64,000 bases of DNA from Acutalibacteraceae bacterium (GTDB taxonomy: Bacteria; Bacillota; Clostridia; Oscillospirales; Acutalibacteraceae), in assembly GCA_045578085.1 (NCBI GenBank), contig JAZNJO010000063.1, positions 275 through 64,274 on the forward strand, read 5' to 3'. The notes under the pieces are model-generated. The model did not search any database and had not been told where the DNA came from. It saw nothing but the letters and a program-made list of their open reading frames with translations. This document shows positions 3,804 to 63,952 of the stretch, one piece after another; within the stretch, counting starts at the first letter, position 1; each line of letters begins with the position of its first letter. A program made the position numbers and the translations under genes.

Positions 3804-3811
3804 GTTGAAAA

Positions 3812-3972: not shown

Positions 3973-3974
3973 AA

Positions 3975-4277: not shown

Positions 4278-4293
4278 TTTAACTCACCTCCTC

Positions 4294-5076: not shown

Positions 5077-5114
5077 AGTTTTTCTCCTTTCTTATTCACG
5101 GTCTGCAGACCGCT

Positions 5115-5420: not shown

Positions 5421-5441
5421 CCTCCTACTGCTCCTTCATAG

Positions 5442-7178
5442 TTATCCAGCTGTATACGCACGATTTGGAATGATGGTATCCGTATCCTTAACTCTCACGC
5501 CATCAAAAGTGATCCACTGTGAAGGAAATTCTTGATTCACAAAGTAATACACCTCACCGTCTTGCGATTCATAGAATGCTTTGTGAGGACCGTAATCGCT
5601 GGCAGGGTTATACTCGCTGTCAATCAAGTCCTGCCAAGTCATACCCACCTTTGCTCTGTACTCAATGCCATCCACGGTAAAGAACACAAAAGCATTGCTG
5701 AGTAAGTCGGTGATGCCCAGCCACTTCATAGCCGCCGCTTGTTCCTCTGCGGTGAGGGTTTCGGTGTTGGTGGTTATGCCAACTTTTACAGCGTAGTCAA
5801 GAACGTCGGTTGTGATAGACTTGTGAGACGAGTCTTTCTTATCAATGTTCTCCGGTCTTGCTCCGTATACTCGCAAAAGCCCATCGCCGATAACATATAA
5901 ACCGCCGCCCGTATATTCGACTTTAACCACGCCGTGTTTACTCTGTCCTGCATAGTCGGTTTTCTTGACAACATCCGCCATCTGTCCATCGACATAGGAT
6001 TTCGGAGTGGCTGCGCTATCAAAAGTTGGGTCGCCTACCAAAAGCTGTCCGCCCTCTCGTCTTAGTGCGAAAGTGTAAGGGGAATTGTTAGTAGTCCAAC
6101 CAAAATTAGTCGCAATATCGCCGTTGGCATCCGTATAGGGTACTTTATAGGCACCTAGTTTTTTAGGAATTGCTCCTAACCATTCGGTTGCCGCCGCTTT
6201 TTCTTCGTCCGTAAGGGTTTCGGTGTTGGTGGTCAAGCCTACCTTTACGGCATAATCCAAAACGTTTGGTGCAATCGCGCGATACGCTATGCTTTTAGCA
6301 TCGATGTCGGTTTTGTCAGCAGAGCGAACGGTCAACAGACCACCACTACTGACATACAAGCCATACGTTGGACTGGATTTAACCAAGCCAGCCACCGAAG
6401 CCGTAGCATAGTCGGTTTTCTTGACAAACTCGCTTGTGTCGATGCCGCCATTTTCCTCAGCCTGTTCCGCTGCCTCTTCAGCCCGCCGCGCGGCCGCCTG
6501 AGCGTCATCAACAGCACTTCTTGCGGCTAGCTCCGATTCCGACGCGGAGCCGGCCGCCTGTGTTGCTGTTTCAGCAGCTTCTTCAGCGGTTGTTGCGCTT
6601 TCGGCGGCATCGGCAACGTTGGCTTCGGATTTCTGCATCAGAAATCGAGCGTCTGCCGTGGCGGCTTTTGCTTGCAGCATAGCCTCATTCGCCTCTCGGG
6701 CGGACGAACCGGCCGCCTCTCGATAGTAAAAAGCAGCCTCCCGCGCCGCCTGTGTTTCGTCCAGCATCGCCTGCAGAAAACCGCGCATCACGCCGTCGCC
6801 TTTGGGGCCTGCGGGACGGGAATCAAAGGAGACGCGACATTCCAGGGTGATCACCTTTTCGGATTTGCTCTCCGTCTTTTCCGCCACCAGCCGCATAGTG
6901 GATACACCGCCGTATTGCGTCCACGCCAGCGGTAACAGCACGGACACCTTGCCGTCTTCGATGGTCAGCGGTCCCTGATGGTCCGGCTCACCGCCGGTGG
7001 TATCCGTGCACTCCACGTAGAGAGAATATTCCGGATTCGTCAGAGGGGAGTCCTTGCCGATCACCCAGATCGACCGCGTGGCGTTATGCTCACCCTGCAC
7101 GCCGCCGTTCTGCACCGTGCTGGGCAAAATGCTGCTCGCATCCTCCGATACAGTCCACATAATTTCACGAATTGCCAT
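5442..7178 (-). CDS. Tail fibre / receptor-binding protein with internal duplication
   Basis: 578 aa. It has an Ala/Glu-rich coiled-coil and two roughly 110-aa repeats (VKKTDYA...VLDYAVKVG[LI]TTNTETLT.EE.AAA..WLG). Its position is just upstream of the lysis genes, and its C-terminal part is AT-rich. Confidence 0.6.
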   Translation of the reverse strand: MAIREIMWTVSEDASSILPSTVQNGGVQGEHNATRSIWVIGKDSPLTNPEYSLYVECTDTTGGEPDHQGPLTIEDGKVSVLLPLAWTQYGGVSTMRLVAEKTESKSEKVITLECRVSFDSRPAGPKGDGVMRGFLQAMLDETQAAREAAFYYREAAGSSAREANEAMLQAKAATADARFLMQKSEANVADAAESATTAEEAAETATQAAGSASESELAARSAVDDAQAAARRAEEAAEQAEENGGIDTSEFVKKTDYATASVAGLVKSSPTYGLYVSSGGLLTVRSADKTDIDAKSIAYRAIAPNVLDYAVKVGLTTNTETLTDEEKAAATEWLGAIPKKLGAYKVPYTDANGDIATNFGWTTNNSPYTFALRREGGQLLVGDPTFDSAATPKSYVDGQMADVVKKTDYAGQSKHGVVKVEYTGGGLYVIGDGLLRVYGARPENIDKKDSSHKSITTDVLDYAVKVGITTNTETLTAEEQAAAMKWLGITDLLSNAFVFFTVDGIEYRAKVGMTWQDLIDSEYNPASDYGPHKAFYESQDGEVYYFVNQEFPSQWITFDGVRVKDTDTIIPNRAYTAG

Positions 7179-13602: not shown

Positions 13603-13619
13603 AGGCTCCTCCCGATCTC

Positions 13620-14858
13620 TCAAAACACTCCGTCGTTATAGATGGCCAGCGCGGTGTTGTAATCCACGCCCAAGTTGTTGCAGGCCGCTTTCAGGCGCTG
13701 CTCATTGTTTTCGGCTTTGGCATTTGGCCAGTTGGTTTTCACAAACAAGGCTGCCGAATACGTGAGGGTGGCATTTTGAGCGGCCGGACTCATCGCCTTA
13801 AACTGGGCGTTATTCTCGGTCTGACTTTTGATCTTATCCGCCACCGCTTCACCGTCGCCGGCTTTACCGCTCCAAAGAATGCCCGTGCCGGTCATCTTGG
13901 TGGACAGACCGGAGGCGAAGTTCAGCGCCTGCGCGGCAACGTGATCCGACACAGCTTGATTACCCTTTTCACCGCCACCGGCCTGCTCATAGATCGTTGC
14001 CTCCTCGTCGGAATAGCCGGCGCTGTAAGCTTCATAGTAGGCCGCCGTCCGCGAGTTATCCAAAGGTGTCAACCCTTTGAGGGTCAACTCCTGATCCCGC
14101 TCCGCTTGGTTCTGTTTCTCCTGCCAACCGCGGGCCGTCTGGTTCTCTTGGCTCTCCCATTCTCGCGCCAGTCGGCTTTGATCCTCCTGCCACTGACGGT
14201 TTCTGTCATTCTCTCCGGCGGTGAAATCCCGCTCCATCTGATTCTGTTGGCCCTGCCAATCGCGGGCCGTCTGGTTCTCCCGACTCTGCCACTGACGATT
14301 TCTCTCGCTCTCCGCAAGAGATTCATCAAACTGATACTCACTCTCCGCCTGCTGACGAGCCTGTGCGGGCATATCCGCCATCATTTGGGTGTACCAGCTG
14401 TAGGTGTCTCGATCAATATCGATCTCGTTCTGGGCCTTTTTGCCCTCCGCCTCCGCCGTCAGCCGAGCGATGGCGTTTCTTGCCTCCTGGATCTTCTTTT
14501 GCTCGGCGCTGCGCACCCCGGCATCCGCGCGGCTTTTCTGCACCTCCAGTGCCGTATGCATACTGCCGGATAGGCCACTGTCGGTCATACCCATGTTGGC
14601 CAGGCTCTCCTTGATGCGCATACGGCTCACCGCGTCCGCCATGGCGTTCTTGTCATAGCCGGCCTGGCTCTCCATCGGCGCATTGTCGATCTGTTGCTGA
14701 TACTGGCCTGTGGCAGCTTTGGTTGCCGTGTCGATACTTTTGTTGATCTTGTCGATGGTTTCCGCATCCGCCGCCTTACGGTTGGCGTGCTGCTCATCCA
14801 CAGCGCTCTTGTTCTGCGCATAGATCTCATCATAGGTCTGCTGGCGCGTTTTTGTCAT
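13620..14858 (-). CDS. Virion-associated protein, Gln/Glu/Arg/Trp-rich repeats (412 aa)
   Basis: Repeats RNRQWQSRENQTARDWQGQQNQMERD / RNRQWQEDQSRLAREWESQENQTARGWQEKQNQAERD. The gene is tightly packed between the 734-aa and giant genes. Confidence 0.5.
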   Translation of the reverse strand: MTKTRQQTYDEIYAQNKSAVDEQHANRKAADAETIDKINKSIDTATKAATGQYQQQIDNAPMESQAGYDKNAMADAVSRMRIKESLANMGMTDSGLSGSMHTALEVQKSRADAGVRSAEQKKIQEARNAIARLTAEAEGKKAQNEIDIDRDTYSWYTQMMADMPAQARQQAESEYQFDESLAESERNRQWQSRENQTARDWQGQQNQMERDFTAGENDRNRQWQEDQSRLAREWESQENQTARGWQEKQNQAERDQELTLKGLTPLDNSRTAAYYEAYSAGYSDEEATIYEQAGGGEKGNQAVSDHVAAQALNFASGLSTKMTGTGILWSGKAGDGEAVADKIKSQTENNAQFKAMSPAAQNATLTYSAALFVKTNWPNAKAENNEQRLKAACNNLGVDYNTALAIYNDGVF

Positions 14859-21567: not shown

Positions 21568-21807
21568 TTATTCGCCGCTTTCTGCCAAGATGGTGTTGCG
21601 GTTGATCGGCTTCTGTGGTTCACCGTCATAGCGCATAAAGTTTTGGTGCTCCCTCTTGCATACCGCCCGCTCCGTTTCGTCTGCCGCCGTCCGCGGCATA
21701 GGAGGCTTGCGGTCTGCTTTTTTTGCCTTCACAGGCGGTTTCAGCCCGGATCGATAAAAGGCCGCCACAGCCACAACGAGGGCGACCACGCTCAACAGTT
21801 CTCCCAT
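21568..21807 (-). CDS. Small membrane protein (79 aa)
   Basis: MGELLSVVALVVAVAAFY... and NFMRYDGEPQKPI. Counterpart of 60470-60676 (…NFLYYDGTEMPIEE). Confidence 0.45.
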   Translation of the reverse strand: MGELLSVVALVVAVAAFYRSGLKPPVKAKKADRKPPMPRTAADETERAVCKREHQNFMRYDGEPQKPINRNTILAESGE

Positions 21808-21974
21808 CGGTATCGTTTTTCCCCTTTCTCCAGGTGGCAGATCACCTCCGCCACCTCGTCCATTTCTTCCGTCAGCAGATCCAGCTGACGCGGATCGGCG
21901 CCGGCGGCTCGCTTTTTCTCTTCCAGTTCTTGCAGCGCGGCAAGGGTTTTGCGGTATTCCGTGATAACACTCAT
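21792..21974 (-). CDS. Small coiled-coil protein (60 aa)
   Basis: MSVITEYRKTLAALQELEEKKR...LTEEMDEVAEVICHLE. Resembles the 66-aa ORF at 61973-62173 (…LLEEEMDELCEAMRMM). Confidence 0.45.
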   Translation of the reverse strand: MSVITEYRKTLAALQELEEKKRAAGADPRQLDLLTEEMDEVAEVICHLEKGEKRYRWENC

Positions 21975-23302
21975 AAGAAACCTCCCCGCATATCCTCCGC
22001 CGTGACGCTGGTGCGGCTTTGCCGCGGCGGACGGGGTTTGTCCACAGGCGGCTTAAACGCCGCCACGTCCTCCATGGCGTAGCGCAGGGCATCCATCAGA
22101 TGGTTGTCCCGATCCACCGGCTCATTGATTGCCTTGCCGGTCTTATCCGTCTTCCACCGATAAACACCCAGCTCCGTCGCCGTGTTCCAGCAGGCGCTGT
22201 GTACGATGATCTTGTATTCCTGCAGGCGGGTGATGCCGTTGATGATGCTATCGCGACCTTTGGTTGCTGCACACACTCTGGTCAGTCCCAGCCGCCGCAG
22301 ATCGTCGTTGCTCTTGGGTTCGGCGGCGTCGGCACGGATGCGCTCTTTTTTGTATCCCTTCCGCGTGATCATCGCGGCAATATCCGTGTTGAGCATCTTG
22401 TGCTCATAGTGCTCGTCGTATATGTAGATCACCCGCTCCATCGGATTCACAGCCGCCGCGATGAAGGCGGTGGGGTCGTTGGTGTATCCGTAGTCCAGCC
22501 CGAATACGTGGCGCCATTGCCACGGTTTTTCAGCGGTCACCTCTTTGATGTCAAAGGTGTTCACCGTCCAGTTTTCCAGCACCAGCCCTTCCGCCACGCC
22601 CCAGTTGCCCAGCCCGGCCACGTCGTATTTGCGGGGCTGTTTTTGCTTCATCCGCTCATAGATGGCACGATCCTCGGCGTCTAGGAACTCGTTGCACAGA
22701 TAGTTGGTGGTCATCACCAGCGCATCCTCCGGCGGATCGTCGAAGAATCGGCTTTTCAGCCAGTGGTGCTCACTCCACGGGTTAAAGGTCACGGTGGTCT
22801 GTTTAAACAGCGGCTCCGGCACCTTTCCACGGGGCACCGACAGATCCAACTTGTCGAAGTCGTCCTCTTTATCAATCTCAAAGGCCTCCTCCAGCCACAC
22901 CCAGCACAGGTGTCCTTGCGGCACCGTCAGAGAGGCCAGCTTCTGCACGTCATCCATACCACGGAACAGAATCCTCTGCCCTGTGGGCAGATAGGTCATC
23001 TCCAGCGGACTTTTGGTGGTCCTCCACCACCGCTCGGCGTGCAGCCGGCGGATGGCCCACTGCAGCTGGGATACGGTACTGCTGCGGTGGGTGTCCATAA
23101 CCTTACGCACCACCAGCAGATTGGCACCAGGATGCTTCATCAGGTGATAGATGTACCACAGTGCTGTCGTGCTGCTCTTTTTGCTGGCCTTGCCGCCCTT
23201 GACCACCCGATAACGGCGGCGGCAGTTCCAGAACTCGCGGTATCCCGCTCCGATGATCTCCGGCAAATACACGGTGTTTTCGTTGTCCATGCGATCCATC
23301 AC
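21971..23302 (-). CDS. terL: Terminase large subunit (PBSX-type)
   Basis: 443 aa. RYRVVKGGKASKKSSTTALWYIYHL (Walker A-like), FGLDYGYTNDPTAF, DRDNHLMDALRYAMEDV nuclease end. Confidence 0.85.
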   Translation of the reverse strand: MMDRMDNENTVYLPEIIGAGYREFWNCRRRYRVVKGGKASKKSSTTALWYIYHLMKHPGANLLVVRKVMDTHRSSTVSQLQWAIRRLHAERWWRTTKSPLEMTYLPTGQRILFRGMDDVQKLASLTVPQGHLCWVWLEEAFEIDKEDDFDKLDLSVPRGKVPEPLFKQTTVTFNPWSEHHWLKSRFFDDPPEDALVMTTNYLCNEFLDAEDRAIYERMKQKQPRKYDVAGLGNWGVAEGLVLENWTVNTFDIKEVTAEKPWQWRHVFGLDYGYTNDPTAFIAAAVNPMERVIYIYDEHYEHKMLNTDIAAMITRKGYKKERIRADAAEPKSNDDLRRLGLTRVCAATKGRDSIINGITRLQEYKIIVHSACWNTATELGVYRWKTDKTGKAINEPVDRDNHLMDALRYAMEDVAAFKPPVDKPRPPRQSRTSVTAEDMRGGFL

Positions 23303-34362: not shown

Positions 34363-34539
34363 TCACCTCCTCATGGCAGGCTTGCGGGGCTTTGGCACCA
34401 CCGTCATGGCGCTGCCGTCCCGTTTCAGCACCACCAGCTTGTCCGGATCGTTGCCGATCAGCAGCCACTCCTCCGGCTCAAACCCTTGGTCGCTCAGCAG
34501 GATCTTCTGCTCCCGGGTCAGTCTCGTTGCTCGTCTCAC
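34363..34539 (-). CDS. DUF6906-like small protein (58 aa)
   Basis: GTG (GTGA overlap) ...RLTREQKILLSDQGFEPEEWLLIGNDPDKLVVLKRDG. Confidence 0.4.
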   Translation of the reverse strand: MRRATRLTREQKILLSDQGFEPEEWLLIGNDPDKLVVLKRDGSAMTVVPKPRKPAMRR

Positions 34540-34886
34540 GCGCTCACCCCGTCTCTGCGGTGGAGTGCCTCGCTGAAATCGTCCCGGATCACCGGATAGT
34601 ACCCCCGCTCCTTCGCCGGGGTGGACATACCGTATCCGTACCGTTCGATCTCCCAGTCCAGATACCCCAGGTGCGCCATCAGCTGGTCCTTGCGGACCCG
34701 CCAGTTGGTCCCCAGCACCTTTTGCCCCGGCAGGCGTCCCTCCTGCAGAGCCTTGCGCACCGCCTCGTGCTTCAGCCCCAGCACGATGGCCACGCCTCCG
34801 GCATCCAGCAGCACCGGCACCTCCATCCAATCGGTGTGAAAATGTACCTTTCCTAGCCCTTGTTTGGTTCTTCCCATCCTTCCCAT
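34536..34886 (-). CDS. Excisionase/MerR-type HTH DNA-binding protein
   Basis: VLLDAGGVAIVLGLKHEAVRKALQEGRLPGQKVLGTNWRVRKDQL is the excisionase-family HTH pattern. Confidence 0.5.
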   Translation of the reverse strand: MGRMGRTKQGLGKVHFHTDWMEVPVLLDAGGVAIVLGLKHEAVRKALQEGRLPGQKVLGTNWRVRKDQLMAHLGYLDWEIERYGYGMSTPAKERGYYPVIRDDFSEALHRRDGVSA

Positions 34887-56992: not shown

Positions 56993-57030
56993 AAAAAAAA
57001 GAGAGTCGGAAGACCTCAGTCTCCCGACTC
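56993..57030 (-). terminator. Strong intrinsic terminator closing the head-only operon
   Basis: Minus strand: GAGTCGGGAGACtgagGTCTTCCGACTC followed by TCTTTTTTTT. Confidence 0.7.
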
Positions 57031-57168
57031 CCACGGAGAATCAGCCGCCCCTAACAGGGCGGGGCTTGGTTGTCTTTGCGCGAGCGCGGTGCACCCGCAG
57101 ACGGTGCTCCATCACCAGCACCTCCAACCGCTTGCGGTCGTAGAGGGGATGGCGCCTATCCTGCCTTG

Positions 57169-57525
57169 TCACAGGGCGCTCACCTCCCCCAACAGATCGC
57201 GGCGGCGGTAGGGAGTGCCGCCGGCGTGGGTCAGGGCACGGAGATACAGCTCCAGATAGCGGTCATAGGGACCGCTATCCTCCGCCGCCACGCAGAGCAG
57301 GGCGGCGGTGCCGTAGGTCATGGCGGGCAGCAGGCGGGGGCTCAGCGCCACCTTCTGCCGCAGATGGGACAGAGGGATAAACTCCCCCTCGTTATCCCGA
57401 TGCCACAGCTCCCCGTAGATCTGGTTAACCGCCAGCAGGCCGCTCTCGTCCCCGTCGTCGGCGATAAGCCGATGGGACTGTCCCATCAGGCTCAGCGCCT
57501 GCCGCAGGATGCTCATACCGGTCAT
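57169..57525 (-). CDS. Head-completion/connector-like protein (118 aa)
   Basis: MTGMSILRQALSLMG.... Same position and similar N-terminus as prophage gene 18990-19361. Confidence 0.5.
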   Translation of the reverse strand: MTGMSILRQALSLMGQSHRLIADDGDESGLLAVNQIYGELWHRDNEGEFIPLSHLRQKVALSPRLLPAMTYGTAALLCVAAEDSGPYDRYLELYLRALTHAGGTPYRRRDLLGEVSAL

Positions 57526-57551
57526 ACCGTCACCTCCTTACAGGGACGGTA

Positions 57552-58463
57552 TCAATACACGTAGGCGTAGATACCGCCGCTCAGGCTGTCCTTGACCACC
57601 ACGTCGTAGTACAGACGGTAGTCCAGTTTCCAAGCGTCCGCCTTCAGGTTATGGGCAGGGTCAAAGCAGCGCCCCTGCTCGGTCTTTTTGATGAGAGATG
57701 CGGCGCGGCGGGGCACCAGCAACAGACCCACGCTCTTGGCGCCGTCCGCGGGGGTGAAGCCGCCCGCCTCCTGACCGGAAGTAGTGCCGTCATAGAAGTC
57801 GTAAGCGGACTTCATGCGGCTGTCCGGCACGGGCAGAATGGCCACGCCGTTGAGGCTGGTGACCTGAGTGTGCAGTTCGCCCTTCTTGAACTCGTTCATC
57901 ACCAGATGGCGGGAGATCTCGGGGCTGTCCTGCAAGGCTTTGAGCATACTGCCGTCCACAAAGGCCACCAGCTCCTCCTCATAGCCTACCGCATTCTGGG
58001 CCTTGGCGATGGCCTCACTGAGCATGGTGTAGGCCTCCTCAGCGGGGGTGCCGGTGACGGTCTGGGACTTGGTCACCGCCAGACCCGCCAACTTGGACAG
58101 CACGTAAGCGTCCACCTCGGGCACCACGCGGGTACGGACGAACTCGCCCATCACCTGACCCGCCAGATCGGCAATACCCGACTCGTCGCCATCCTCACGG
58201 TCCAGCTGGAAGGAGCGGCCGCGGTCCATGGTCAGGGTGAAGGGCTTAGCGGTAACCGCCACAGTACCACTGACAAAGCCGGTGTCGCGGTCATAGTCAC
58301 CCAGACCCGAGATGTTCACCTCGGGGATCATTACGGTCTTGGTGCCCACGAACTTGCCGCGCAGGTTGTTGTCCGCCATAAAGCCGGTGACCGGCTTCTG
58401 CACCACGGCCTTATCCAGCTCGTCGGTCATTTTGATAGAAATGGATTCCAGATTCAAACTCAT
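57552..58463 (-). CDS. Major capsid protein (303 aa), paralogue of 19765-20676
   Basis: Same length as the prophage copy. Many identical blocks are shared (see that entry). Ends GIYAYVY. Confidence 0.7.
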   Translation of the reverse strand: MSLNLESISIKMTDELDKAVVQKPVTGFMADNNLRGKFVGTKTVMIPEVNISGLGDYDRDTGFVSGTVAVTAKPFTLTMDRGRSFQLDREDGDESGIADLAGQVMGEFVRTRVVPEVDAYVLSKLAGLAVTKSQTVTGTPAEEAYTMLSEAIAKAQNAVGYEEELVAFVDGSMLKALQDSPEISRHLVMNEFKKGELHTQVTSLNGVAILPVPDSRMKSAYDFYDGTTSGQEAGGFTPADGAKSVGLLLVPRRAASLIKKTEQGRCFDPAHNLKADAWKLDYRLYYDVVVKDSLSGGIYAYVY

Positions 58464-58486
58464 TAATACGTTCTTCCTTTCTCAAA

Positions 58487-58843
58487 TTACAATGCAGAGC
58501 GGAACGCTCGGAGAAACGCGTCCTGCTCGGGTGGGGTGTGGGTGGCGCCGCGGGACAGACTGCCCGCACTGCGGGCACCGGCCTCCTGCTGCTTTTGCAG
58601 GGCGGCGGCCACCTTCTTCTCCTCCTGCCAGCGATGCCGCAGATAGGCATCCAGCAGAGGGATGCCCTCCTCGGCGGCGGTGTCCAGCACCCCGTCGGGC
58701 AGGGCGGCAGGGTCGGTGAGCTGAGGGAACTCGGCGGACAGGGCGATAAACTCCTCTGCCAGCCGTTCCGTGGCGTCCTCCACAGGCGCCGCGGTCTCCT
58801 CAGGGATCACCTCAGGGGTGGTGTCGGTTACGTTTGGTTCCAT
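58487..58843 (-). CDS. Short scaffolding-like protein (118 aa)
   Basis: Aligns only with the N-terminal acidic tip and the C-terminal about 90 aa of the 271-aa prophage scaffold (…AEEFIALSAEFPQLTD...LLDAYLRHRW vs …AAEFAELREEYPEVTD...LLDAYLRYER). Confidence 0.55.
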   Translation of the reverse strand: MEPNVTDTTPEVIPEETAAPVEDATERLAEEFIALSAEFPQLTDPAALPDGVLDTAAEEGIPLLDAYLRHRWQEEKKVAAALQKQQEAGARSAGSLSRGATHTPPEQDAFLRAFRSAL

Positions 58844-58866
58844 AGGTTACCCTCCTCGGTGAAATG

Positions 58867-60480
58867 TCAGCCCATCTCCTGCAACAGAGAATCCAGTCGG
58901 GGGACGTATCCTCTGGGCAGGCGGCTCAGGTACTGTTTCTTATCGATGACGCCGCTCTGATAGAGATTATCCAGCGTCTCGGCGGTGCGGGTCTCGCTGT
59001 AACGGTCTCCCTCCCCCGCCTCCACGCGAATATCCAGCAGCAGACGGCGGCAGGCGGCGCTGTCGAAGGGGGCGTACCAGACCCCCTGCTCCTCGCAGAT
59101 CTTGAGGGCGCGGTCACCGTACATACCCATCCAGAACTCCGCCCAGATCCGCGCCACCTCCTCCACAAAGGTATAAAAGCGGTTCTGCATCATGGTGAGC
59201 GGCATCAGGGATGCCTCTCGCACCGCGATGATGGCGGAGGTGTTGGTGGGCTCCACGTCGCCCAGCAGGGTAGCGCTGACCCCTGCCTGGGTCATGGTAT
59301 CCCGAATCAGTCCCTGCACGTTGGTGTCCAACTGGGCGGAGAAGGCGGGCGGGTCCACATACCGCACCGCCTCCCGCACCTCTTCACCGGTGCCGTAGAC
59401 GGGGATCACCTGACCCGGGTCGTTGGTGATGGGCTGGGTGACCACGTCTCCATTAACCAGCATAATGGGCATACCCATCATCATACCCGCCCAAACAGCG
59501 GCGGACACGGTGCGGTTAATGGCGATCTGGTTGGGGATGAGATAGGGGATCTCGCTCTCACCGTAGCCTTGCTGGCGGCGCTCCTCCCAGCGGAATACCG
59601 CCAAGGGATAGAGGCGCAGCCCCATCTCCCAAGGAGCGCGCACCGTCACGTCGCCGCACACCTGCATAGCCTTGACGGTGGGGGTGCCGTCCTCTGCCCA
59701 CTCCTTCCAGAAGCGGGTCAGCAGGGTGGCGTGACCCCCCTGCCCGTTGTCCTCATCCCCCACGATGCGTTGCCAGTCCCGACAGCCGGCAGCCTTGGCC
59801 TGACGGCGCAGGGCGGCCACGGGGCGACGCTGGGCGATGAGCAGGTAGGGCTGCTGCTGGATGTCCTCCACGGTGGGGTCCCCCAAATACACCTGCTCCA
59901 CGTCCAGCACCTCGGCGGCAATGTCACCGCAGATGGGGGTGGTGGCGGCAGTGTCGGCATACTGCCCCGTCCGGATGCGGTCATCCCAATAGGTATACAG
60001 CACACCCGTGCCGCTGATGTAGGCGTTGCGCAGCACCCTCTGTTTGAGATAGTCCAGCCGCAGACGGGCGGCGGTGGTGGCGAAATAGTCGGTGAGGGCC
60101 GCCGCCATGGCCTGTGCCCCTGCCGTCGCCTGTAAAGGCGCCGGACTTTCTCCGCGCCGCAAAGCGGTGCGGTAGGCGCTCACCTGCTCCTGCACCGTGG
60201 CGGTCAGGGGCAGCCCATCCGCCTGAAAGCGCACCCCCACGGGGGCAGCGCCGACCACCGCCATTTTGTAGTCACCGATGCGCTTGATGACGTTGTACCG
60301 TACCAGAGGACGGCTGTCGCCGCAATGGGCGCCGTGCCACTGGTCGCCGGAATAGAACCGCTCGTTGATGCGGCTCTGCTCATACAGACCCCGCTCCCCC
60401 AGCTGCCGTTTATAGTCGGTGCCGCGTCGGTATTCCTCCTGCACCTGCTTGGGGGTCACGGCTGTTTTCTTACTGCTCAT
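58867..60480 (-). CDS. Portal protein (537 aa)
   Basis: RGLYEQSRINERFYSGDQWHG...YNVIKRIGDYKMAVV. Homologue of 17076-18923. In the canonical position after terL. Confidence 0.7.
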   Translation of the reverse strand: MSSKKTAVTPKQVQEEYRRGTDYKRQLGERGLYEQSRINERFYSGDQWHGAHCGDSRPLVRYNVIKRIGDYKMAVVGAAPVGVRFQADGLPLTATVQEQVSAYRTALRRGESPAPLQATAGAQAMAAALTDYFATTAARLRLDYLKQRVLRNAYISGTGVLYTYWDDRIRTGQYADTAATTPICGDIAAEVLDVEQVYLGDPTVEDIQQQPYLLIAQRRPVAALRRQAKAAGCRDWQRIVGDEDNGQGGHATLLTRFWKEWAEDGTPTVKAMQVCGDVTVRAPWEMGLRLYPLAVFRWEERRQQGYGESEIPYLIPNQIAINRTVSAAVWAGMMMGMPIMLVNGDVVTQPITNDPGQVIPVYGTGEEVREAVRYVDPPAFSAQLDTNVQGLIRDTMTQAGVSATLLGDVEPTNTSAIIAVREASLMPLTMMQNRFYTFVEEVARIWAEFWMGMYGDRALKICEEQGVWYAPFDSAACRRLLLDIRVEAGEGDRYSETRTAETLDNLYQSGVIDKKQYLSRLPRGYVPRLDSLLQEMG

Positions 60481-60676
60481 TCTGTTCCTCCTCTATGGGC
60501 ATCTCCGTGCCGTCGTAATACAGAAAATTGCGGTTTTCCTGCCACGTGTGGGTGGCGGGCGGCACCGCAGGGGCGGCGATCAACGCCCCCTGCCGAGGGG
60601 CAGGCAGCCAGGTGAGCAAACACTGCACCACCGCTGCCGTCAATAAACCGCCCATATAGCCGATAAATAGCCACAT
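60470..60676 (-). CDS. Small membrane protein (68 aa)
   Basis: AGGAG 8 nt before the ATG. MWLFIGYMGGLLTAAVVQCLLTWL...NFLYYDGTEMPIEE. The longer ORF in the track overlaps terL and was rejected. Confidence 0.45.
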   Translation of the reverse strand: MWLFIGYMGGLLTAAVVQCLLTWLPAPRQGALIAAPAVPPATHTWQENRNFLYYDGTEMPIEEEQNEQ

Positions 60677-60690
60677 ATTCGTTACTCCTT

Positions 60691-61986
60691 TCATCCCTGC
60701 CATCCTGTGCGGGGCAGACCATAATGCCGCACCCGCTCCTCGCGGCGGGGCGAACGGGGCACATCTTCCATAGCGTAGCGCAGGGCATCCATCAGGTGGT
60801 TGTCCCGATCGCAGGGAATATTGCGCCACGCGCCATCTCGTCCCCCCGACTCCCACCGATAGGCGCCCAGCTCCGCCGCCGTGTGGACGCATCGGGGGTG
60901 CACCACCAATCGGTATTCCTGCAAGCGGGCAATGCCTGCCGCCACCGAATCCCGTCCCTTGCCCGCAGGACACAGGCGGGTCAGCCCCAGTCGCCGCAGG
61001 TCGTCGTTGGACTTAGGTTCGGCGCTGTCGGCGCGGATGCGCTCCTTCTGATACCCTTTGCGGCGGATCATGGCGGCGATATCCTCGTTGAGCATCCGCT
61101 TTTCGTAGTGCTCGTCGTAGATATACAGTCGTTTGGTTTGTTCCTCCACCGCCGCGGCGATGAAGGCGGTGGGGTCATTGGTGTAGCCGTAGTCCAGTCC
61201 GAAGATGTGCCGCATCCCCTCCCGCCGCAGGTCAGACAGTGGGAACGCCTCCACCTGCCAATTCTCGAATACCAAGCCCTCGCTGTGTCCCCACTCTCCC
61301 AGTCCCGCCACCGCGTACCGACGGGGGTTTTCCACCCGCATCCGCTCGTATACCGCCCGATCCGTGTCGTCCAGAAACTCGTTGCACCGATAATCGGTGG
61401 TGATGGCCAGCACCTGCGGATCGGAACGGTCAAAAAAGCGGCTTTTGAGCCAATGATTTCCATCCCACGGATTAAAGGTCACCGTGGTCTGCTTAAACAG
61501 AGGTGGCGGCACCTCGCCACGGGGCACCGACAGATCCAGCTTCTCAAAGTCCTCCTGCCGCCCGATCTCAAAGGCTTCCCCCACCCACACCCAGCACAGG
61601 TATCCCTGCTCCACAGTGGTGGAAGCCAGCTTCTCCACGTTGTCCAAACCGCGAAACAGCACCCGCTGTCCCGTGGGGAGATAGGTCAGCTCCATCGGCT
61701 CCTTGACGGCGCGCCACAGATGCTCCACCCCCAGACGGCGGATGGCCCACCGTAGCTGGGCGAAGGTGCTGTCCACGTGGGTGCGATAGACGTTGCGCAC
61801 CACCAGCAGATTAGCCTTTGGATATTTCATCAGGTGGTAGATATACCATAGGGCGGTGGTGGTGGATTTCTTGCTTGCCTTACCGCCCTTGACCACCCGA
61901 TAGCGGCTGCGGCAGTCCCAGAAGGCCCGATAGCCCCGTCCCACCACCTCCGGCAGGCAGACGATGTCCGCATCAAGCCTCCACAT
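60691..61986 (-). CDS. terL: Terminase large subunit (PBSX-type), paralogue of 21971-23302
   Basis: Shares RYRVVKGGKASKKS, TTALWYIYHLMK, FKQTTVTFNPW, FGLDYGYTNDPTAFIAAAV, AEPKSNDDLRRLGLTR and DRDNHLMDALRYAMEDV with the prophage terL. Confidence 0.85.
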   Translation of the reverse strand: MWRLDADIVCLPEVVGRGYRAFWDCRSRYRVVKGGKASKKSTTTALWYIYHLMKYPKANLLVVRNVYRTHVDSTFAQLRWAIRRLGVEHLWRAVKEPMELTYLPTGQRVLFRGLDNVEKLASTTVEQGYLCWVWVGEAFEIGRQEDFEKLDLSVPRGEVPPPLFKQTTVTFNPWDGNHWLKSRFFDRSDPQVLAITTDYRCNEFLDDTDRAVYERMRVENPRRYAVAGLGEWGHSEGLVFENWQVEAFPLSDLRREGMRHIFGLDYGYTNDPTAFIAAAVEEQTKRLYIYDEHYEKRMLNEDIAAMIRRKGYQKERIRADSAEPKSNDDLRRLGLTRLCPAGKGRDSVAAGIARLQEYRLVVHPRCVHTAAELGAYRWESGGRDGAWRNIPCDRDNHLMDALRYAMEDVPRSPRREERVRHYGLPRTGWQG

Positions 61987-62173
61987 AGCGCCGCATCATC
62001 CGCATCGCCTCGCACAGTTCGTCCATTTCCTCCTCCAACAGAGCCACTCGCTTATCGTAGACGGTGATCTCCTTGGTCAGACGCTCGTGCCGCTCCCGCA
62101 GCTTCTGCAAGGATTGCTGATAGGTTTCCAAAAGTTGTTTCATTTCAGTCCGGAATAGCCTCCTCTCCCACAA
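61973..62173 (-). CDS. Small coiled-coil protein (66 aa)
   Basis: …LLEEEMDELCEAMRMMRRY. Related to prophage orf 21792-21974 but located upstream of terL rather than downstream. Confidence 0.45.
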   Translation of the reverse strand: MWERRLFRTEMKQLLETYQQSLQKLRERHERLTKEITVYDKRVALLEEEMDELCEAMRMMRRYVEA

Positions 62174-62552
62174 AGATGACCGGCGCCATCGGAGCGTCGG
62201 CGTTGTCCTTAGCCGTCTTTTTGGGAGGGTCTCCCTCGTAGCCGGCGTGATTTTTCAGATATAGAATGTGCATATTGGGGCTGGTTCCCCTCCGCAGGGC
62301 GTGCTCCATCACGCTGGCGGTGGCCTCGCCTCCCGCTCGACGGATGGCGGCGATCTTCGCTTTGGCACTGCGGGTGGTGCCCTCGGTTTCCCCCTGCAAA
62401 ATGCGGCAGAACTGCCCCAGCTCCATATCGATTTCCGCCGCCAGACGCTCCACGGTCAGGGGCACCTCCTGCGCCGCGGCGTAGGCTTTGGCTCGCTGGA
62501 TGGCCGCCTCAATGTCCGCCAGCCGCCGTTTTTCCAGTGGTGTATCGTGCAT
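62145..62552 (-). CDS. terS: Terminase small subunit-like protein (gp3-packaging/HTH type), unrelated to the prophage terS
   Basis: …LTVERLAAEIDMELGQFCRILQG...NMHILYLKNHAGYEGD resembles the GP3_package-type TerS pattern (…F.LKN.FGW.D). RBS ACGGAGGA. Confidence 0.5.
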   Translation of the reverse strand: MHDTPLEKRRLADIEAAIQRAKAYAAAQEVPLTVERLAAEIDMELGQFCRILQGETEGTTRSAKAKIAAIRRAGGEATASVMEHALRRGTSPNMHILYLKNHAGYEGDPPKKTAKDNADAPMAPVIFVGEEAIPD

Positions 62553-62688
62553 GGTATCCTCCGTTTTCGGTGTTCAAATGAAATGCATTCCGTTGTCTCT
62601 TCGACGGCCTCCTCGCGTGGCATTTGCCGTGCAAATGACAGAGGAAAGGTCGATTTTTCAAAAAAGTGCAAAAGAAAAAGCCCTCGGC

Positions 62689-62940
62689 TCAGAATCGCTC
62701 TCCCAATTCCACCAGTACGCAGGGCTGCCAGCCCTCATGCCCCTCCCACATACGGGATGGGACGACCCGCAGGCCGTCGCAGTAGTCCTCGGTCTCCATG
62801 GGCTGTCGCCCATCGTACCGAAAGATCACCGGTGTTTCGAGAGGCATCTCCTGAGCCAAGCGCTGCCAATCGCCCAGCGTCACAGTCGTCACCTCGATAT
62901 GAATTTTCATTGCAGACGGATTTGTCCGTCCCTTACTCAC
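62689..62940 (-). CDS. Hypothetical first gene of the SOS-controlled operon (about 83 aa)
   Basis: GTG start behind GGAGG (or the ATG at 62910). …MKIHIEVTTVTLGDWQRLAQEM.... No motif recognised. Confidence 0.4.
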   Translation of the reverse strand: MSKGRTNPSAMKIHIEVTTVTLGDWQRLAQEMPLETPVIFRYDGRQPMETEDYCDGLRVVPSRMWEGHEGWQPCVLVELGERF

Positions 62941-62974
62941 AACCGCCCTCCACAACGACGGTGTTTCTCGAAAA

Positions 62975-62988
62975 CGAACATTTGTTCG
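62975..62988. promoter_or_regulatory. LexA (Cheo/DinR) box
   Basis: CGAACATTTGTTCG is a perfect match to the Gram-positive consensus CGAAC-N4-GTTCG, at about +5 to +18 of the promoter at 63000-63028. Confidence 0.7.
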
Positions 62989-62999
62989 TTCTATATATT

Positions 63000-63028
63000 A
63001 TTGTAGACCCTATTTCGGGAGTTGTCAA
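63000..63028 (-). promoter_or_regulatory. Consensus sigma-A promoter of the head-only operon
   Basis: Minus strand: TTGACA (63028-23), 17 nt, TACAAT (63005-00). Confidence 0.65.
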
Positions 63029-63133: not shown

Positions 63134-63952
63134 ATGAAGAACGCATTTGCCATCAATAATACCGTAGAGTCGGCGCCTGTTGCTCCGGCGGATGCCTTTC
63201 TGAAAGGCAAGATCAACGCCGCTCTGTCGCAGCAGATCAACGAGGAATTTGACGGAGCGATCAAGAAAGTGGTCCTTCGTTTTCGCTCCGTTCCTCACTT
63301 TATCGGTATGGGCGTATCCGCGCTGGTGGTGGCGGTATGCTCCGCTATGTTGGAGGAGTCGGAGCAATTTTCCTTGCCCTGGCTTTTCGGTGCCATCATC
63401 GGTATGGTGGCGTTGTTTCTCGTTGTGTGGTCCTATAATCGGCATATTTCCACTGACAGCGATGAATCCCAACTGAATATGGCGCAAGCGGAGGAGTACG
63501 GCACTATGACCCGCCGTGAGCTGGGAATCCCCGATACCGCCGCCGACTTGGACGTGCTGGGATATTTCTATGAGGTGAGCAAAGGCAAAGAGAAGCGCAC
63601 GCGTATGGATAATGAGGATTATGACGCCTTGGATATGTATGTCTTTATAGAAGATGGGCACTTGATGTTAGCGGACGGAGAGTGTCTCTACGCCTTCCCC
63701 TTGTCCTCCATCACCGCCGTTCGCCGTCAGGAGCAGAAAACCCGCATCTTCTGCTGGAATAAGGACACCATGCCCAATCAGGAGCCTTATAAGTCCTATC
63801 GGATCAAGTATGATGAAGAGAACGACGTATTCACCGTCCGCTGCGTGTATGCACTGGAACTGGCCGCATCCGACTGTGAAATACTGGTGCCGGATTACGA
63901 GTGGGAGCTCACCCTGCAGTCTATGCTGGGTCTGCCGGTCACCGAGGCGTAA
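63134..63952 (+). CDS. Hypothetical membrane protein (272 aa)
   Basis: RBS AAGGAG. Two TM helices (GMGVSALVVAVCSAML, LFGAIIGMVALFLVVW) followed by a soluble domain. No motif recognised. Confidence 0.5.
   Translation: MKNAFAINNTVESAPVAPADAFLKGKINAALSQQINEEFDGAIKKVVLRFRSVPHFIGMGVSALVVAVCSAMLEESEQFSLPWLFGAIIGMVALFLVVWSYNRHISTDSDESQLNMAQAEEYGTMTRRELGIPDTAADLDVLGYFYEVSKGKEKRTRMDNEDYDALDMYVFIEDGHLMLADGECLYAFPLSSITAVRRQEQKTRIFCWNKDTMPNQEPYKSYRIKYDEENDVFTVRCVYALELAASDCEILVPDYEWELTLQSMLGLPVTEA

Follow-up and report, generated by a model that had tools for sequence, protein, structure and literature searches.

A conserved podovirus head operon without tail genes in Acutalibacteraceae: a candidate LexA-controlled, GTA-like module

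Introduction

Why should a bacterial chromosome keep the genes to build and fill a phage head with no tail, fibre or lysis gene beside them? The question is raised by an operon in a 64-kb window (the whole stretch of Acutalibacteraceae DNA analysed here), lying 20 kb from a complete related podovirus prophage that occupies 3.9-38.6 kb. A sequence-only reading of this cassette had left three options, a phage satellite, a GTA or an otherwise domesticated capsid, and its signals, genes and relatives now allow a choice to be proposed.

Operon organization and control

The head operon lies wholly on the minus strand, where a single promoter and a single strong terminator enclose its ten genes (Table 1). 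Both signals were located as the sequence-only reading had proposed for a tail-less head operon, and the gene content agrees: genes for tail, fibre, lysis, integrase, repressor or replication functions are absent from the interval. Its count of nine ORFs had to be raised to ten by the addition of a conserved 43-aa ORF. The host operon claimed to adjoin the terminator is also there, coding for ScmC, PqqD, a peptidase and an ABC system and starting from its own promoter.

The cassette promoter is overlaid, at the expected transcription start, by a LexA (Cheo/SOS) box, and LexA is predicted to bind it from the published Firmicute consensus. The promoter hexamers are invariant in all 27 aligned cassettes, with a variable spacer sequence, and the consensus box CGAACAAAYGTTCG recurs at an identical distance from the promoter in 27/27 of them, with 0-2 outer mismatches. 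The box draws its support from this conservation at every orthologous locus, because a lone box is not above chance: the window holds no LexA box besides that of the cassette, and the chance expectation is 2.2 when one mismatch is allowed. The proposed SOS box therefore stands, being perfect in the window and kept in every copy. The accompanying claim that the element encodes no regulator is true of the window's sub-lineage but not of the cassettes at large, about half of which have, immediately upstream, a divergent gene for an XRE-HTH/Peptidase_S24 (CI-like) repressor, as do all the ancestral-type mini elements described below.

Table 1. Features of the head cassette in order of transcription, with the flanking host promoter and the prophage nozzle (positions in the window)
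Feature	Position	Strand	Basis or remark
Sigma-A type promoter, TTGACA-17-TACAAT	63028-63000	-	11/12 consensus matches
LexA (Cheo/SOS) box, CGAACAAATGTTCG	62988-62975	-	perfect Firmicute match; 11 nt downstream of -10
c1, conserved small protein, 64 aa	62689..62883	-	alignment and translation; dN/dS 0.23-0.41
c2, TerS-like, 135 aa, HTH-like N-terminal segment	62145..62552	-	dN/dS 0.12-0.15
c3, coiled-coil protein, 56 aa	61973..62143	-	translation; median dN/dS 0.24
TerL, 431 aa, PBSX/Terminase_3 family	60691..61986	-	PF04466 E=7e-44; PF17288 E=1e-25
c5, single-pass membrane peptide, 68 aa	60470..60676	-	C-terminal WxExRNFLYYDG motif
Portal, 537 aa	58867..60480	-	phrog_156 E=3e-24; dN/dS 0.03-0.10
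Half-length scaffolding protein, 118 aa	58487..58843	-	C-terminal ~95 aa match prophage scaffold
Major capsid protein, 303 aa	57552..58463	-	phrog_422 E=2e-76; dN/dS 0.011-0.032
c9, predicted tail adaptor (P22 gp4/Sf6 gp7-like), 118 aa	57169..57525	-	structure prediction; dN/dS 0.09-0.13
c10, basic ORF, 43 aa	57041..57172	-	GTGA overlap with c9 stop; median dN/dS 0.33
Intrinsic terminator, 14-bp stem, 4-nt loop, T8	57032-57001 (feature 56993..57032)	-	sequence
Second promoter, of the adjoining host operon	56988-56960
Predicted tail nozzle of resident prophage (outside cassette), 734 aa	14859..17063	-	structure prediction

Gene content

The longest ORF of c1 (the earlier 'orf83') extends to 62955, and the gene most likely starts at the GTG at 62883. 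A weak homologue of c1 is found in one mini element (L049). The TerS-like c2 directly precedes TerL in all relatives, and 5 of the 32 members of its family match PF16677, the model of the P22 gp3 TerS (best E=3e-4). For c3, formerly 'orf66', 56 aa is the most likely length and the one found in most relatives; its profile search gave coiled-coil chance matches only. TerL scores 146 bits against TIGR01547 and shows a dN/dS of ~0.10, the portal also matches P22_portal and Head-tail_con weakly, and the capsid protein has 1981 homologues at E<=1e-10. Peptides of the c5 type, alike in position and motif, are encoded not only by cassettes but also by mini elements, full phages and the prophage of the window. 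Median lengths of the ORF preceding the capsid gene are 134 aa in cassettes and 144 aa in mini elements, against 257 aa in full phages.

The protein c9, previously described as 'head-completion'-like, is predicted to be a tail adaptor of the P22 gp4/Sf6 gp7 kind. When its AF2 model (pLDDT 82.8, pTM 0.76) was compared with the PDB by Foldseek, the top 15 matches were all Sf6 gp7 or P22 gp4 (probability 0.75-1.0, TM 0.52-0.60); their E-values are weak (0.08-1.6), and it is solely the consistency of these matches that carries the call. The last gene, c10, is restricted to head-only cassettes, with gene calls in L001 and L088; it is absent from mini elements and phages, and is unrelated to the nozzle N-terminus.

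Relation to the resident prophage

Paralogy with the prophage, as first proposed, holds for TerL (67% identical), for the capsid protein (64%, both copies being of 303 aa and ending GIYAYVY, as had been noticed) and for the portal (48%), and extends to the C-terminal part of the scaffold (39% over residues 25-118 against the 286-aa prophage scaffold). It is weaker than claimed for two other proteins: the 118-aa adaptor is related at the profile level only to a 185-aa prophage protein (19% identity, hhalign probability 96.7%, E=4e-10), and the membrane peptide c5 has in common with the prophage ORF at 21568-22092 only its architecture and an NF(L/M)xYDG motif. The window prophage, with a TerS of the Terminase_2 family, has no paralogue of c2.

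The AF2 model of the 734-aa prophage protein (pLDDT 83.8, pTM 0.83) has as its top 31 Foldseek matches podovirus tail, nozzle or muzzle proteins (E=3e-19 to 2e-7), including those of E1004, T7 gp12, P22 gp10, Sf6 gp8 and phicrAss001. By this prediction, the gene missing just after c9 is a T7 gp12/P22 gp10-like nozzle, and the prophage nozzle becomes a candidate partner supplied in trans to the cassette, whose heads could possibly use tails from their neighbour. The divergence of the adaptors (19% identical) and portals (48%) may count against docking of the prophage nozzle. Within the data available, a related full phage is present only in the window and in 4 of the 27 cassette genomes, a co-occurrence that may simply reflect phage host range.

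Conservation and origin

With identical end points, the cassette is found in at least 27 species-level Acutalibacteraceae/Oscillospirales genomes from gut and rumen, and the survey of this site in relatives revealed neither full prophages nor assorted deletion derivatives. In none of the 27 genomes does a nozzle homologue come after it, even where 10 kb of downstream sequence is present; every non-cassette relative with downstream sequence has a nozzle homologue after the adaptor. Of the 25 loci checked, 24 have every ORF at full length; in the exception (L015) most of the portal gene is gone, so loss is tolerated at least sometimes. The cassette usually occupies the same locus: it adjoins the ScmC-PqqD-peptidase-ABC genes in 16 of the 24 genomes that have 3 kb or more of sequence downstream, with synteny continuing to SufCBD and a U32 peptidase. 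The divergence of the cassettes follows that of their flanks (Mantel r=0.84, p=2e-4), with a mean identity of 82% in the cassette core and 64% in the host flanks. Values of dN/dS lie between 0.01 and 0.4 across all ten genes, far below 1 in each and down to 0.01-0.03 for the capsid gene, the per-gene ranges coming from close pairs. These intact genes under purifying selection bear out the earlier argument against decay. Integrase and replication genes and flanking att repeats were found neither here nor in the ~27 relatives.

The cassettes form one clade in 200/200 bootstraps, and their nearest outgroups are ~10-kb mini-podovirus elements of Acutalibacteraceae carrying the S24 repressor (L049, L125, L036, L042, L044 and L063), apparently undescribed until now. 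These sit between host genes and encode neither an integrase nor replication functions. The mini elements have the promoter, the half-length scaffold and the c1-to-adaptor gene order in common with the cassettes, but they keep the nozzle, a ~240-aa protein, an amidase endolysin and holin-like genes, and AAGTTGCAAAA repeats flank their promoter, either in place of a LexA box or alongside one. A further grade (L031, L034, L046) has the head, adaptor and nozzle only and lacks fibre and lysis genes, and some cassettes retain the holin-like genes found at the end of the mini element without the endolysin. Full phages of the same lineage have genomes of 37-39 kb. It is well supported that the cassettes descend from repressor-controlled mini-podovirus elements of ~10 kb through a single loss of the nozzle, fibre and lysis genes, and that control moved from the S24 repressor to the host LexA. 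Equally well supported is the view of the cassette as a chromosomally fixed, vertically inherited and domesticated module of a small P22-like podovirus, retaining exactly the head, DNA-packaging and portal-closing functions; its intact inheritance in at least 27 species is that of a domesticated virus part, not of a dead prophage. Among the options left by the sequence-only reading, the best fit is a 'GTA-like or otherwise domesticated particle system'.

Proposed function and alternatives

Judging from the gene content, we tentatively favour an SOS-induced head, packaging and adaptor module that would yield a helper-dependent, GTA-like particle, its nozzle, fibres and lysis being provided in trans. 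In an undamaged cell, LexA would occupy the box over the transcription start and keep the single promoter off; upon DNA damage, active RecA would lead to LexA self-cleavage and to expression of the ten genes as one transcript. Scaffold, capsid protein and portal would form procapsids, and the half-length scaffold would probably make these smaller than the procapsids of the ~38-kb parent phages. TerS and TerL would fill them by headful with cellular DNA, with packaging possibly initiated at the locus or close to it, and with no excision or replication by the element the cargo would be host DNA. An adaptor ring would then seal the portal and present a docking face for the nozzle, which, with fibres and lysis functions, could come from a related podovirus prophage, such as that at 3.9-38.6 kb, or from an unlinked operon, as in the FpGTA of Faecalibacterium prausnitzii. 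In P22, heads that have received gp4 but neither gp10 nor gp26 lose their DNA, so the stability of a head bearing only its adaptor may hinge on a plug provided by c10 or a trans factor. None of the 80 metagenomic nozzle loci examined proved to be a stand-alone nozzle or tail operon.

The same genes could also be the head operon of a split and self-sufficient GTA, with nozzle, fibre/RBP and holin/endolysin encoded in one or more unlinked, co-induced operons and no helper phage involved. FpGTA offers a precedent (two operons 125 kb apart), supply in trans looks common in a lineage with grades that keep the nozzle without fibre or lysis genes, and some cassettes have holin-like genes without endolysin. 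We nevertheless consider this not very likely, as the window, prophage aside, contains no second LexA box or tail-like operon, and the nozzle always follows the adaptor in the ~60 metagenomic loci with upstream context, a weak test since the carriers' whole genomes were outside the search. Somewhat less probable is anti-phage interference, in which heads, adaptor and terminase would reduce the phage burst by competing for phage parts, mis-assembling with them or diverting tails; the cassette would then be induced together with, or by, related podophages, and any DNA transfer would be incidental, an unlikely scheme in our view. Part-stealing satellites usually interfere with their helpers, and the 48-67% paralogy to the co-resident phage, a phage type present in 4 further cassette-bearing MAGs, is consistent with such a role. 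However, all the packaging and assembly genes, TerS, TerL and portal among them, are under purifying selection as strong as in tail-bearing relatives, which simple poisoning would not need, there are no matches to known defence families, and control is ascribed to LexA, with no phage-sensing regulator.

Tail-less capsids might themselves be the end product, as DNA-filled or empty shells freed on lysis that would act without injection, for instance as protected extracellular DNA or a stress compartment. The FpGTA particles, which showed no identifiable tails, and the cassette-specific c10, which occupies the former position of the nozzle gene, speak for this. Yet the adaptor, a known bridge from portal to nozzle, is kept at a dN/dS of ~0.1, and with no lysis gene in cis the release of capsids needs something further. 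We know of no precedent for the uptake of tail-less capsids, and this outcome seems to us quite unlikely. A mobile, cf-PICI-like satellite that excises, replicates and moves with helper tails would have its own TerS, TerL, portal, capsid protein and connector and no tail, as here, and similar capsid-only clusters have been noted in a murine transductomics preprint. This satellite option of the sequence-only reading was rejected, and we regard it as very improbable: an integrase, replication module and att repeats are missing from every copy, the cassette usually keeps the same locus and has co-diverged with the host flanks, and the parts are scaffold-based and podoviral, not an HK97 protease with siphovirus connectors. 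Equally improbable is a decaying, functionless prophage remnant with a LexA box by chance. The single box per 64 kb is within chance expectation and L015 has a broken portal gene, but the comparative data contradict decay through identical end points and intact ORFs in 24/25 loci of different species, selection on all ten genes, a core conserved above its flanks, and a promoter and box kept in 27/27 cassettes.

Comparison with known systems

The cassette follows the order TerS-TerL-portal-scaffold-coat-adaptor of P22 and Sf6 (gp3, gp2, gp1, gp8, gp5, gp4), where gp4/gp7 resembles the predicted adaptor fold and the gp10 nozzle resembles the missing next gene; it differs by a 303-aa capsid protein of another sequence family (phrog_422), the half-length scaffold and the additional small genes c1, c3, c5 and c10. 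Like the cf-PICIs (Alqurainy et al. 2023; He et al. bioRxiv 10.1101/2025.02.11.637232), it has a full head and packaging set without a tail, and its particles would be expected to be completed with phage-made tails. Those islands are mobile, with an integrase, regulators, replication genes, HK97-type heads and siphovirus connectors and tails, none of which it has, whereas the cassette combines vertical inheritance, predicted LexA control and podovirus parts.

With RcGTA, the Caulobacter and Bartonella GTAs, Brachyspira VSH-1 and PBSX, the cassette has in common a domesticated, host-regulated and vertically inherited structural cluster without replication or integration genes. PBSX of B. subtilis is moreover SOS-induced, and its TerL belongs to the family of the cassette TerL (TIGR01547). 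In these systems, one or several loci code for the complete tailed particle and, as a rule, for lysis, whereas the tail parts of the cassette in cis stop at the adaptor.

The closest precedent, although non-orthologous, is FpGTA (Borodovich et al., Nat Commun 2026;17:2046; PMC12946183), a podovirus-like chromosomal system whose head and tail/lysis genes form two operons and whose particles have no visible tails and contain 8.4-8.9 kb of random host DNA. As described there, its capsid protein is of the N4-gp56 family, a model that the cassette capsid protein does not match, its TerL is annotated 'Terminase-like family' and not PBSX/Terminase_3, and its operon I includes the tail nozzle, whereas the cassette ends at the adaptor. 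The passages considered mention no SOS/LexA control of FpGTA, whereas the cassette has a LexA box, and the second operon of FpGTA has no counterpart in the 64-kb window. FpGTA resembles the cassette in being a chromosomal, non-replicative and podovirus-derived system of Oscillospirales gut bacteria. Both keep a head operon of TerS, TerL, portal, scaffold and capsid protein apart from fibre and lysis genes, and both have been kept across species, FpGTA within one genus.

Operon limits and gene content

Motif and terminator calls place the head operon on the minus strand where the sequence-only reading had located it, bracketed by one promoter and one strong terminator, and family searches bear out its statement that no tail, lysis, integrase or replication genes lie in between. 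The nine ORFs counted at first have to be raised to ten, since a conserved 43-aa ORF, c10, overlaps the stop of the last 118-aa gene. Family searches assigned TerL to the Terminase_3/PBSX family (TIGR01547), the portal protein to phrog_156 and the 303-aa major capsid protein to phrog_422. The first and third ORFs, c1 and c3, most likely encode 64 and 56 aa; together with the membrane peptide c5, the scaffold c7, the adaptor c9 and c10, they have no family in Pfam, PHROGs or NCBIfam. In the TerS-like family of c2, 5 of 32 members weakly match the P22 gp3 model. Sequence-profile searches of the PDB with the adaptor, TerS-like and nozzle families gave nothing useful, and adaptor and nozzle were resolved only by structure prediction plus Foldseek.

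c10 occurs in head-only cassettes exclusively, where it occupies the former place of the nozzle gene. A relic of the nozzle N-terminus was considered for it and rejected (hhalign probability 0.3%), and no clear relationship links it to the 35-aa ORF behind the nozzle gene in L125, one of the 10-kb relatives described below. A small TM peptide with a C-terminal WxExRNFLYYDG-like motif is present throughout the phage lineage. No Rfam family was found for structured RNA, no att-like repeats were detected, and no flanking direct repeats were better than chance. The host operon beyond the terminator is a RiPP-like maturation and export cluster and adjoins the cassette in at least 16 species.

Coordinates of the cassette, its neighbours and related elements (window positions unless a related locus is named)
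Feature	Position	Strand	Remarks
Promoter TTGACA-17-TACAAT	63028-63000	-	near-consensus
Predicted LexA/Cheo box CGAACAAATGTTCG	62988-62975	-	perfect Firmicute match, 11 nt past the -10 element
c5, single-pass membrane peptide	60470-60676	-	between TerL and next head gene
c10, 43-aa basic ORF	57172-57041	-	motif PLYDR(R/K)RLExLV; translationally coupled to adaptor gene; dN/dS about 0.33
Terminator	57032-57001	-	14-bp stem, T8
Second promoter	56988-56960		starts unrelated host operon directly beyond terminator
Host operon: ScmC/HPrK-like 290 aa, PqqD 88 aa, S24/S26-like peptidase 190 aa, ABC exporter 553 aa	53553-56988	-	own promoter
272-aa two-TM protein	63134-63952	+	no family match; divergent from cassette; 75-87% identical in cassette loci L001 and L008
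Prophage counterpart of c5	21568-22092	-	between TerL and next head gene
Prophage giant 2152-aa protein	7165-13623		counterpart in related locus L127 has MuF_C domain
Extra gene in cassette locus L017	L017 ~3120-3400		between c1 and c2; 64% identical to window prophage ORF 34536-34886
Portal deletion in cassette locus L015	L015 4417-4900		residues ~84-441
Mini element L049	L049 4670-15470		repeated AAGTTGCAAAA at 5430-5500
Mini element L125	L125 3378-14197		
Mini elements L036, L042, L044, L063			equivalents of the AAGTTGCAAAA repeat
Intermediate grade L031	L031 ~4055-13391		host carbohydrate genes GH39, GlgA, GlgB follow (all three intermediates)
Intermediate grade L034	L034 ~4683-13225		
Intermediate grade L046	L046 ~3543-13237		
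Adaptor and nozzle of L158	L158 2675-7356		directly after divergent HTH regulator pair
Tandem Cheo-like boxes of cassette locus L019	L019 2093-2172		upstream of 113-aa membrane protein

Relationship to the resident prophage

The resident prophage (about 3.9-38.6 kb) is podovirus-like and complete: besides an integrase, an HTH repressor and genes for replication, it has a Terminase_2 TerS, head genes and a lysis cassette. It also encodes a nozzle, a giant protein of 2152 aa, a fibre-like protein and a 286-aa scaffold. Its head genes are ordered unlike those of the cassette, the portal gene following the capsid gene. The sequence-only reading had described TerL, portal, capsid, TM peptide and the last 118-aa protein of the cassette as clear paralogues of prophage genes. 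This stands for TerL (67%), capsid (64%) and portal (48%), and the C-terminus of the scaffold can be added (39%). Both capsid proteins have 303 aa and end in GIYAYVY. The paralogy of the last 118-aa protein is detectable by profile comparison only (hhalign 96.7%, 19% identity), and the two TM peptides have in common just their position, a single TM helix and an NF(L/M)xYDG motif.

Full phages of the lineage have genomes of 37-39 kb. Among isolated phages, no capsid protein is more than 43% identical to that of the cassette, and IMG/VR holds two short cassette fragments only.

Conservation, locus and selection

A search of the protein collection with the capsid protein found 1981 homologues at E<=1e-10. 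Identity is 72-99% for more than 110 clusters, and nearly all of those listed have about 300 aa; three homologues inspected for their context share the gene series of the cassette as well as its gene sizes. We surveyed one genome per GTDB species, which gave 304 loci, kept the best 80 of these 304 and mapped all window proteins onto them. In this set, loci whose capsid protein reaches 75% identity with that of the cassette are always head-only cassettes running from c1 to c9. Such cassettes were found in 27 species-level genomes among the best 80 of 304 loci, labelled Acutalibacteraceae, Ruminococcus sp. or Clostridia and of human, ruminant or other gut origin. A homologue of the prophage 734-aa protein is missing downstream of all 27, even with 10 kb of downstream sequence, whereas loci with a capsid protein at most 72% identical have it as the next gene after the c9-like one wherever downstream sequence exists.

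All cassette ORFs are full length, with identical end points, in 24 of the 25 loci checked; in the exception, L015, an internal deletion has removed most of the portal gene. An extra gene is inserted in another cassette, L017. The same locus, with ScmC, PqqD, peptidase and ABC genes downstream, is found in 16 of the 24 cassettes having at least 3 kb of downstream sequence, and synteny extends beyond it to a U32 peptidase and SufCBD. The cassette core (TerL, portal, capsid) has diverged in step with the host flanks (Mantel r=0.84, p=2e-4, 15 genomes), the core being more conserved, with a mean identity of 82% against 64% for the flanks. A tree of TerL, portal and capsid with 67 taxa unites its 26 cassettes in a single clade, recovered by 200 of 200 bootstraps.

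In close comparisons, dN/dS is 0.011-0.032 for the capsid, 0.03-0.10 for the portal, about 0.10 for TerL, 0.09-0.13 for c9 and 0.12-0.15 for the TerS-like gene. When all unsaturated pairs are taken, the nine genes have medians of 0.13-0.43 and c10 has one of 0.33; flanking host genes give 0.10-0.29. At the level of sequence comparison, these data show a single origin, vertical inheritance and purifying selection on all ten genes, and identify the cassette as a conserved unit rather than a local accident. The conservation of the cassette, its intact ORFs and this selection thus come out in favour of the earlier description of the genes as intact and free of decay: relatives carry neither a full prophage nor assorted deletion derivatives at this site, and there are no frameshifts.

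Adaptor, nozzle and scaffold

The AF2 model of c9 (pLDDT 82.8, pTM 0.76) has Sf6 gp7 and P22 gp4 as its best 15 PDB matches in Foldseek, with probabilities of 0.75-1.0 and TM scores of 0.52-0.60. The E-values are weak (0.08-1.6), so that c9 is called a probable, rather than certain, P22-like tail adaptor of the gp4/gp7 type. The prophage 734-aa protein, homologous to a ~680-aa protein of the mini elements, was modelled by AF2 with a pLDDT of 83.8; the first 31 places among its PDB matches are taken by podovirus proteins of tail, nozzle or muzzle (T7 gp12, P22 gp10 and Sf6 gp8 among them) at E-values from 3e-19 to 2e-7. A c9-like gene followed by the nozzle gene is found in all non-cassette relatives with downstream sequence. 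With both identities, the cassette appears complete through the adaptor ring and devoid of nozzle, fibre and lysis genes; the structural models thereby indicate that a probable adaptor for tail docking has been kept and the nozzle is gone.

The order TerS-TerL-portal-scaffold-coat-adaptor is that of P22. The scaffold has a median length of 134 aa in cassettes and 144 aa in mini elements, against 257 aa in full phages. Work on P22 showed that truncated scaffolds favour smaller shells; small capsids are therefore plausible for the cassette, the half-length scaffold being the sole hint of them.

A nozzle-profile scan of metagenome contigs returned no nozzle without an adaptor upstream and no stand-alone tail operon. 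One locus, L158, has adaptor and nozzle directly after a divergent pair of HTH regulators, an unusual module order, and no head genes in the 4.8 kb upstream of them. It is an adaptor plus nozzle behind a regulatory module and is not counted as a stand-alone tail operon.

Mini elements and grades of reduction

In the tree of TerL, portal and capsid, the cassette clade has as its nearest outgroups podovirus-like mini elements of about 10 kb and not full prophages. L049 and L125 are examples, with genes running from a divergent S24 repressor to lysis-type genes. After the repressor come c1-like, TerS-like and c3-like genes, then TerL, TM peptide and portal, a scaffold of ~125 aa, a 303-aa capsid protein, a c9-like protein of ~128 aa and proteins of ~680 and ~240 aa; an Amidase_3/SPOR endolysin and two small, holin-like membrane or coiled-coil proteins close the element. 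Mini elements sit at conserved loci between host housekeeping genes (for L049 and L125, ADH and PHP phosphatase, or GAPDH and ClpP/FtsK/YgiQ) and encode neither an integrase nor replication functions. They are candidates for self-contained, apparently undescribed GTAs of Acutalibacteraceae.

An intermediate grade (L031, L034, L046) has only repressor, head, adaptor and nozzle genes and stops right after the gene for a ~700-aa protein, with fibre and lysis genes absent in cis. Some cassettes (L002/L014, L013, L019, L023, L029, L030, L052) have kept one or two of the terminal small mini-element genes after c10. The cassette is very probably derived from such a mini-podovirus element, as a domesticated, selected and SOS-boxed module for head, packaging and adaptor.

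Promoter, LexA box and repressor

In 27 of 27 aligned cassettes, TTGACA is followed after 17 nt by TACAAT and after another 11-12 nt by CGAACAAAYGTTCG; hexamers and box are kept while the spacers drift. The LexA box owes its credibility to this footprint across species and not to its lone match in the window. By the published Bacillus/Clostridium consensus, the motif is predicted to be a LexA operator: a Cheo box (CGAAC-N4-GTTCG) lies over the expected transcription start, as sites of the LexA (SOS) regulon do, and LexA would bind there. Extra Cheo-like boxes in related loci are mostly chance matches within genes and were of no use for calibrating the SOS motif. Two tandem boxes of this kind lie upstream of a 113-aa membrane protein in L019, possibly a YneA-like SOS inhibitor of cell division.

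Directly upstream of the cassette, 11 genomes encode a divergent protein of 212-214 aa with XRE-HTH and Peptidase_S24 domains, its copies being 70-100% identical. Its domains mark it as a putative CI-like, self-cleaving repressor. It was rejected as host LexA because its HTH is XRE-type and its score does not reach the LexA equivalog cutoff. In the window's sub-lineage (13 genomes), and only there, a 272-aa two-TM protein takes the place of this repressor. The sequences of L001, L008 and L088 stop just past that gene, and window proteins looked up by exact sequence, in order to extend the contig, had no match.

Mini elements have the same promoter, with a AAGTTGCAAAA motif upstream of the -35 element and another right after the -10 element. 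The S24 repressor probably uses this repeat as its operator. Some mini elements have a LexA-like box at the downstream position in place of AAGTTGCAAAA, and in cassettes the LexA box replaces that downstream copy. Cassettes bearing a repressor retain the upstream motif together with the LexA box; the window lineage has the LexA box alone. We infer from this distribution that control may have been handed over stepwise, from an element-encoded, SOS-sensitive repressor to host LexA.

Proposed working and alternatives

LexA would repress the cassette promoter and DNA damage would derepress it. Procapsids would form, TerS and TerL would fill them and the adaptor would close the portal, nozzle, fibres and lysis being supplied in trans. 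The cassette cannot excise or replicate, so that whatever is packaged would be chromosomal DNA, possibly beginning near the cassette locus. All of these functional steps are inferred computationally, and the specific helper-dependent, GTA-like mechanism they would compose falls, in our estimate, a little short of an even chance.

Conceivably, the missing parts come from a related prophage such as the window's own: a phage type with the order TerL-scaffold-capsid protein-portal is present in the window and in 4 of the 27 cassette MAGs. The cassette is absent from all 18 mini-element genomes and from about 25 other phage-bearing genomes. Host range alone may account for this association. An unlinked operon, by analogy with the Faecalibacterium GTA (FpGTA), is also a conceivable source; no second operon was found in the 64-kb window, and the absence from metagenome contigs of a nozzle without an upstream adaptor weighs weakly against it. 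The cassette could possibly serve to interfere with phages, but this would leave the strong selection on the whole packaging machinery unexplained, and searches with models of defence systems and families gave no matches. Tail-less capsids as the end product are quite improbable, the conserved adaptor speaking for docking; they stay viable because FpGTA particles had no visible tails. A decaying (cryptic), non-functional prophage remnant is contradicted by the intact ORFs and identical end points in 24 of 25 loci and by dN/dS values of 0.01-0.4, and a capsid-forming PICI (cf-PICI) is contradicted as well.

The helper-dependent mechanism can be extended to the whole clade, as a host-fixed, non-mobile, vertically inherited and LexA-switched podovirus head plus adaptor. 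After damage it would fill small capsids with chromosomal DNA, and these would become infectious only with nozzle, fibres and lysis captured from resident or superinfecting related podophages. We hold this extended version to be rather unlikely. If true, a tail-stealing element would for the first time be fixed in its host rather than be a mobile satellite, and would for the first time depend on tails of podoviruses, which are assembled on the head and not joined as preformed units. The cassette would then be the end point of a series from full phage to 10-kb mini element, to head plus nozzle and to head only, with control passing in parallel from an element-encoded repressor to host LexA.

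Significance

The cassette is of interest because it is widespread in abundant commensals of gut and rumen, its regulation can be read from sequence, and it makes the biology of a split or helper-dependent GTA testable. Acutalibacteraceae include Ruminococcus bromii-type organisms of the human gut and rumen. A small set of ten genes under one promoter is predicted to build and fill capsids. Should particles be made, the SOS response, and hence antibiotics and inflammation, would be tied directly to capsid-mediated gene flow in abundant commensals. It would moreover be established that bacteria can keep just the head half of a virus over a very long time, and a natural series would be at hand for the stepwise domestication of phage parts and their regulation. 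Sequencing of virus-like particles has recently shown host DNA to be commonly packaged in a GTA-like manner among gut Oscillospirales, with genes known for Faecalibacterium only (PMC12946183). The cassette and its ~10-kb relatives provide concrete, non-orthologous candidates for such packaging in Acutalibacteraceae.

Comparison with known systems

With cf-PICIs, the cassette has 'heads but no tails' as common ground: TerS, TerL, portal, capsid and head-tail connector are present and a tail is not. It lacks their defining integrase, replication module and mobility. No copy has an integrase or flanking repeats beyond chance that might be att sites; the replication (primase-replicase, ori) and regulatory (alpA/stl-like) modules are absent, a CI-like S24 repressor occurring in some relatives only. 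Compared with GTAs in the RcGTA sense, the cassette has the evolutionary traits, being fixed, vertically inherited, conserved across species and without replication, integration or excision genes of its own. It does not encode a complete particle: nozzle, fibre and lysis genes for delivery and release are absent in cis, and neither the window nor metagenomic nozzle loci revealed an unlinked operon. We found no description in the literature of this cassette family, its SOS box or the reduction series. A preprint on murine transductomics reports capsid-plus-lysis clusters in Oscillospiraceae resembling cf-satellites, which suggests that the general phenomenon is only now being noticed.

The cassette belongs to a known kind, that of domesticated phage particle modules, or GTAs. 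FpGTA is podovirus-like and chromosomal, with a head-plus-nozzle operon and a fibre/RBP/lysis operon 125 kb apart, the second being undetectable in 7 of 12 strains (PMC12946183). With a size of about 40 nm and no visible tails, its particles enclose 8.4-8.9 kb of host DNA; GTA-like packaging is also reported from other Oscillospirales, with no gene cluster identified there (PMC12946183). The FpGTA capsid protein is of the N4-gp56 family, whereas that of the cassette has no NCBIfam match, N4-gp56 included. TerL is named 'Terminase-like family' in Table S2 of that paper and is set apart by this name from the TIGR01547 TerL of the cassette (PMC12946183). The head operon of FpGTA includes the nozzle and is paired with a second operon, whereas that of the cassette lacks the nozzle, and no such partner was found for it in the window or in metagenomic nozzle loci. 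In addition, the cassette has an explicit predicted LexA operator. FpGTA is the closest published system, and the cassette would work like it in outline but is not a member of its family.
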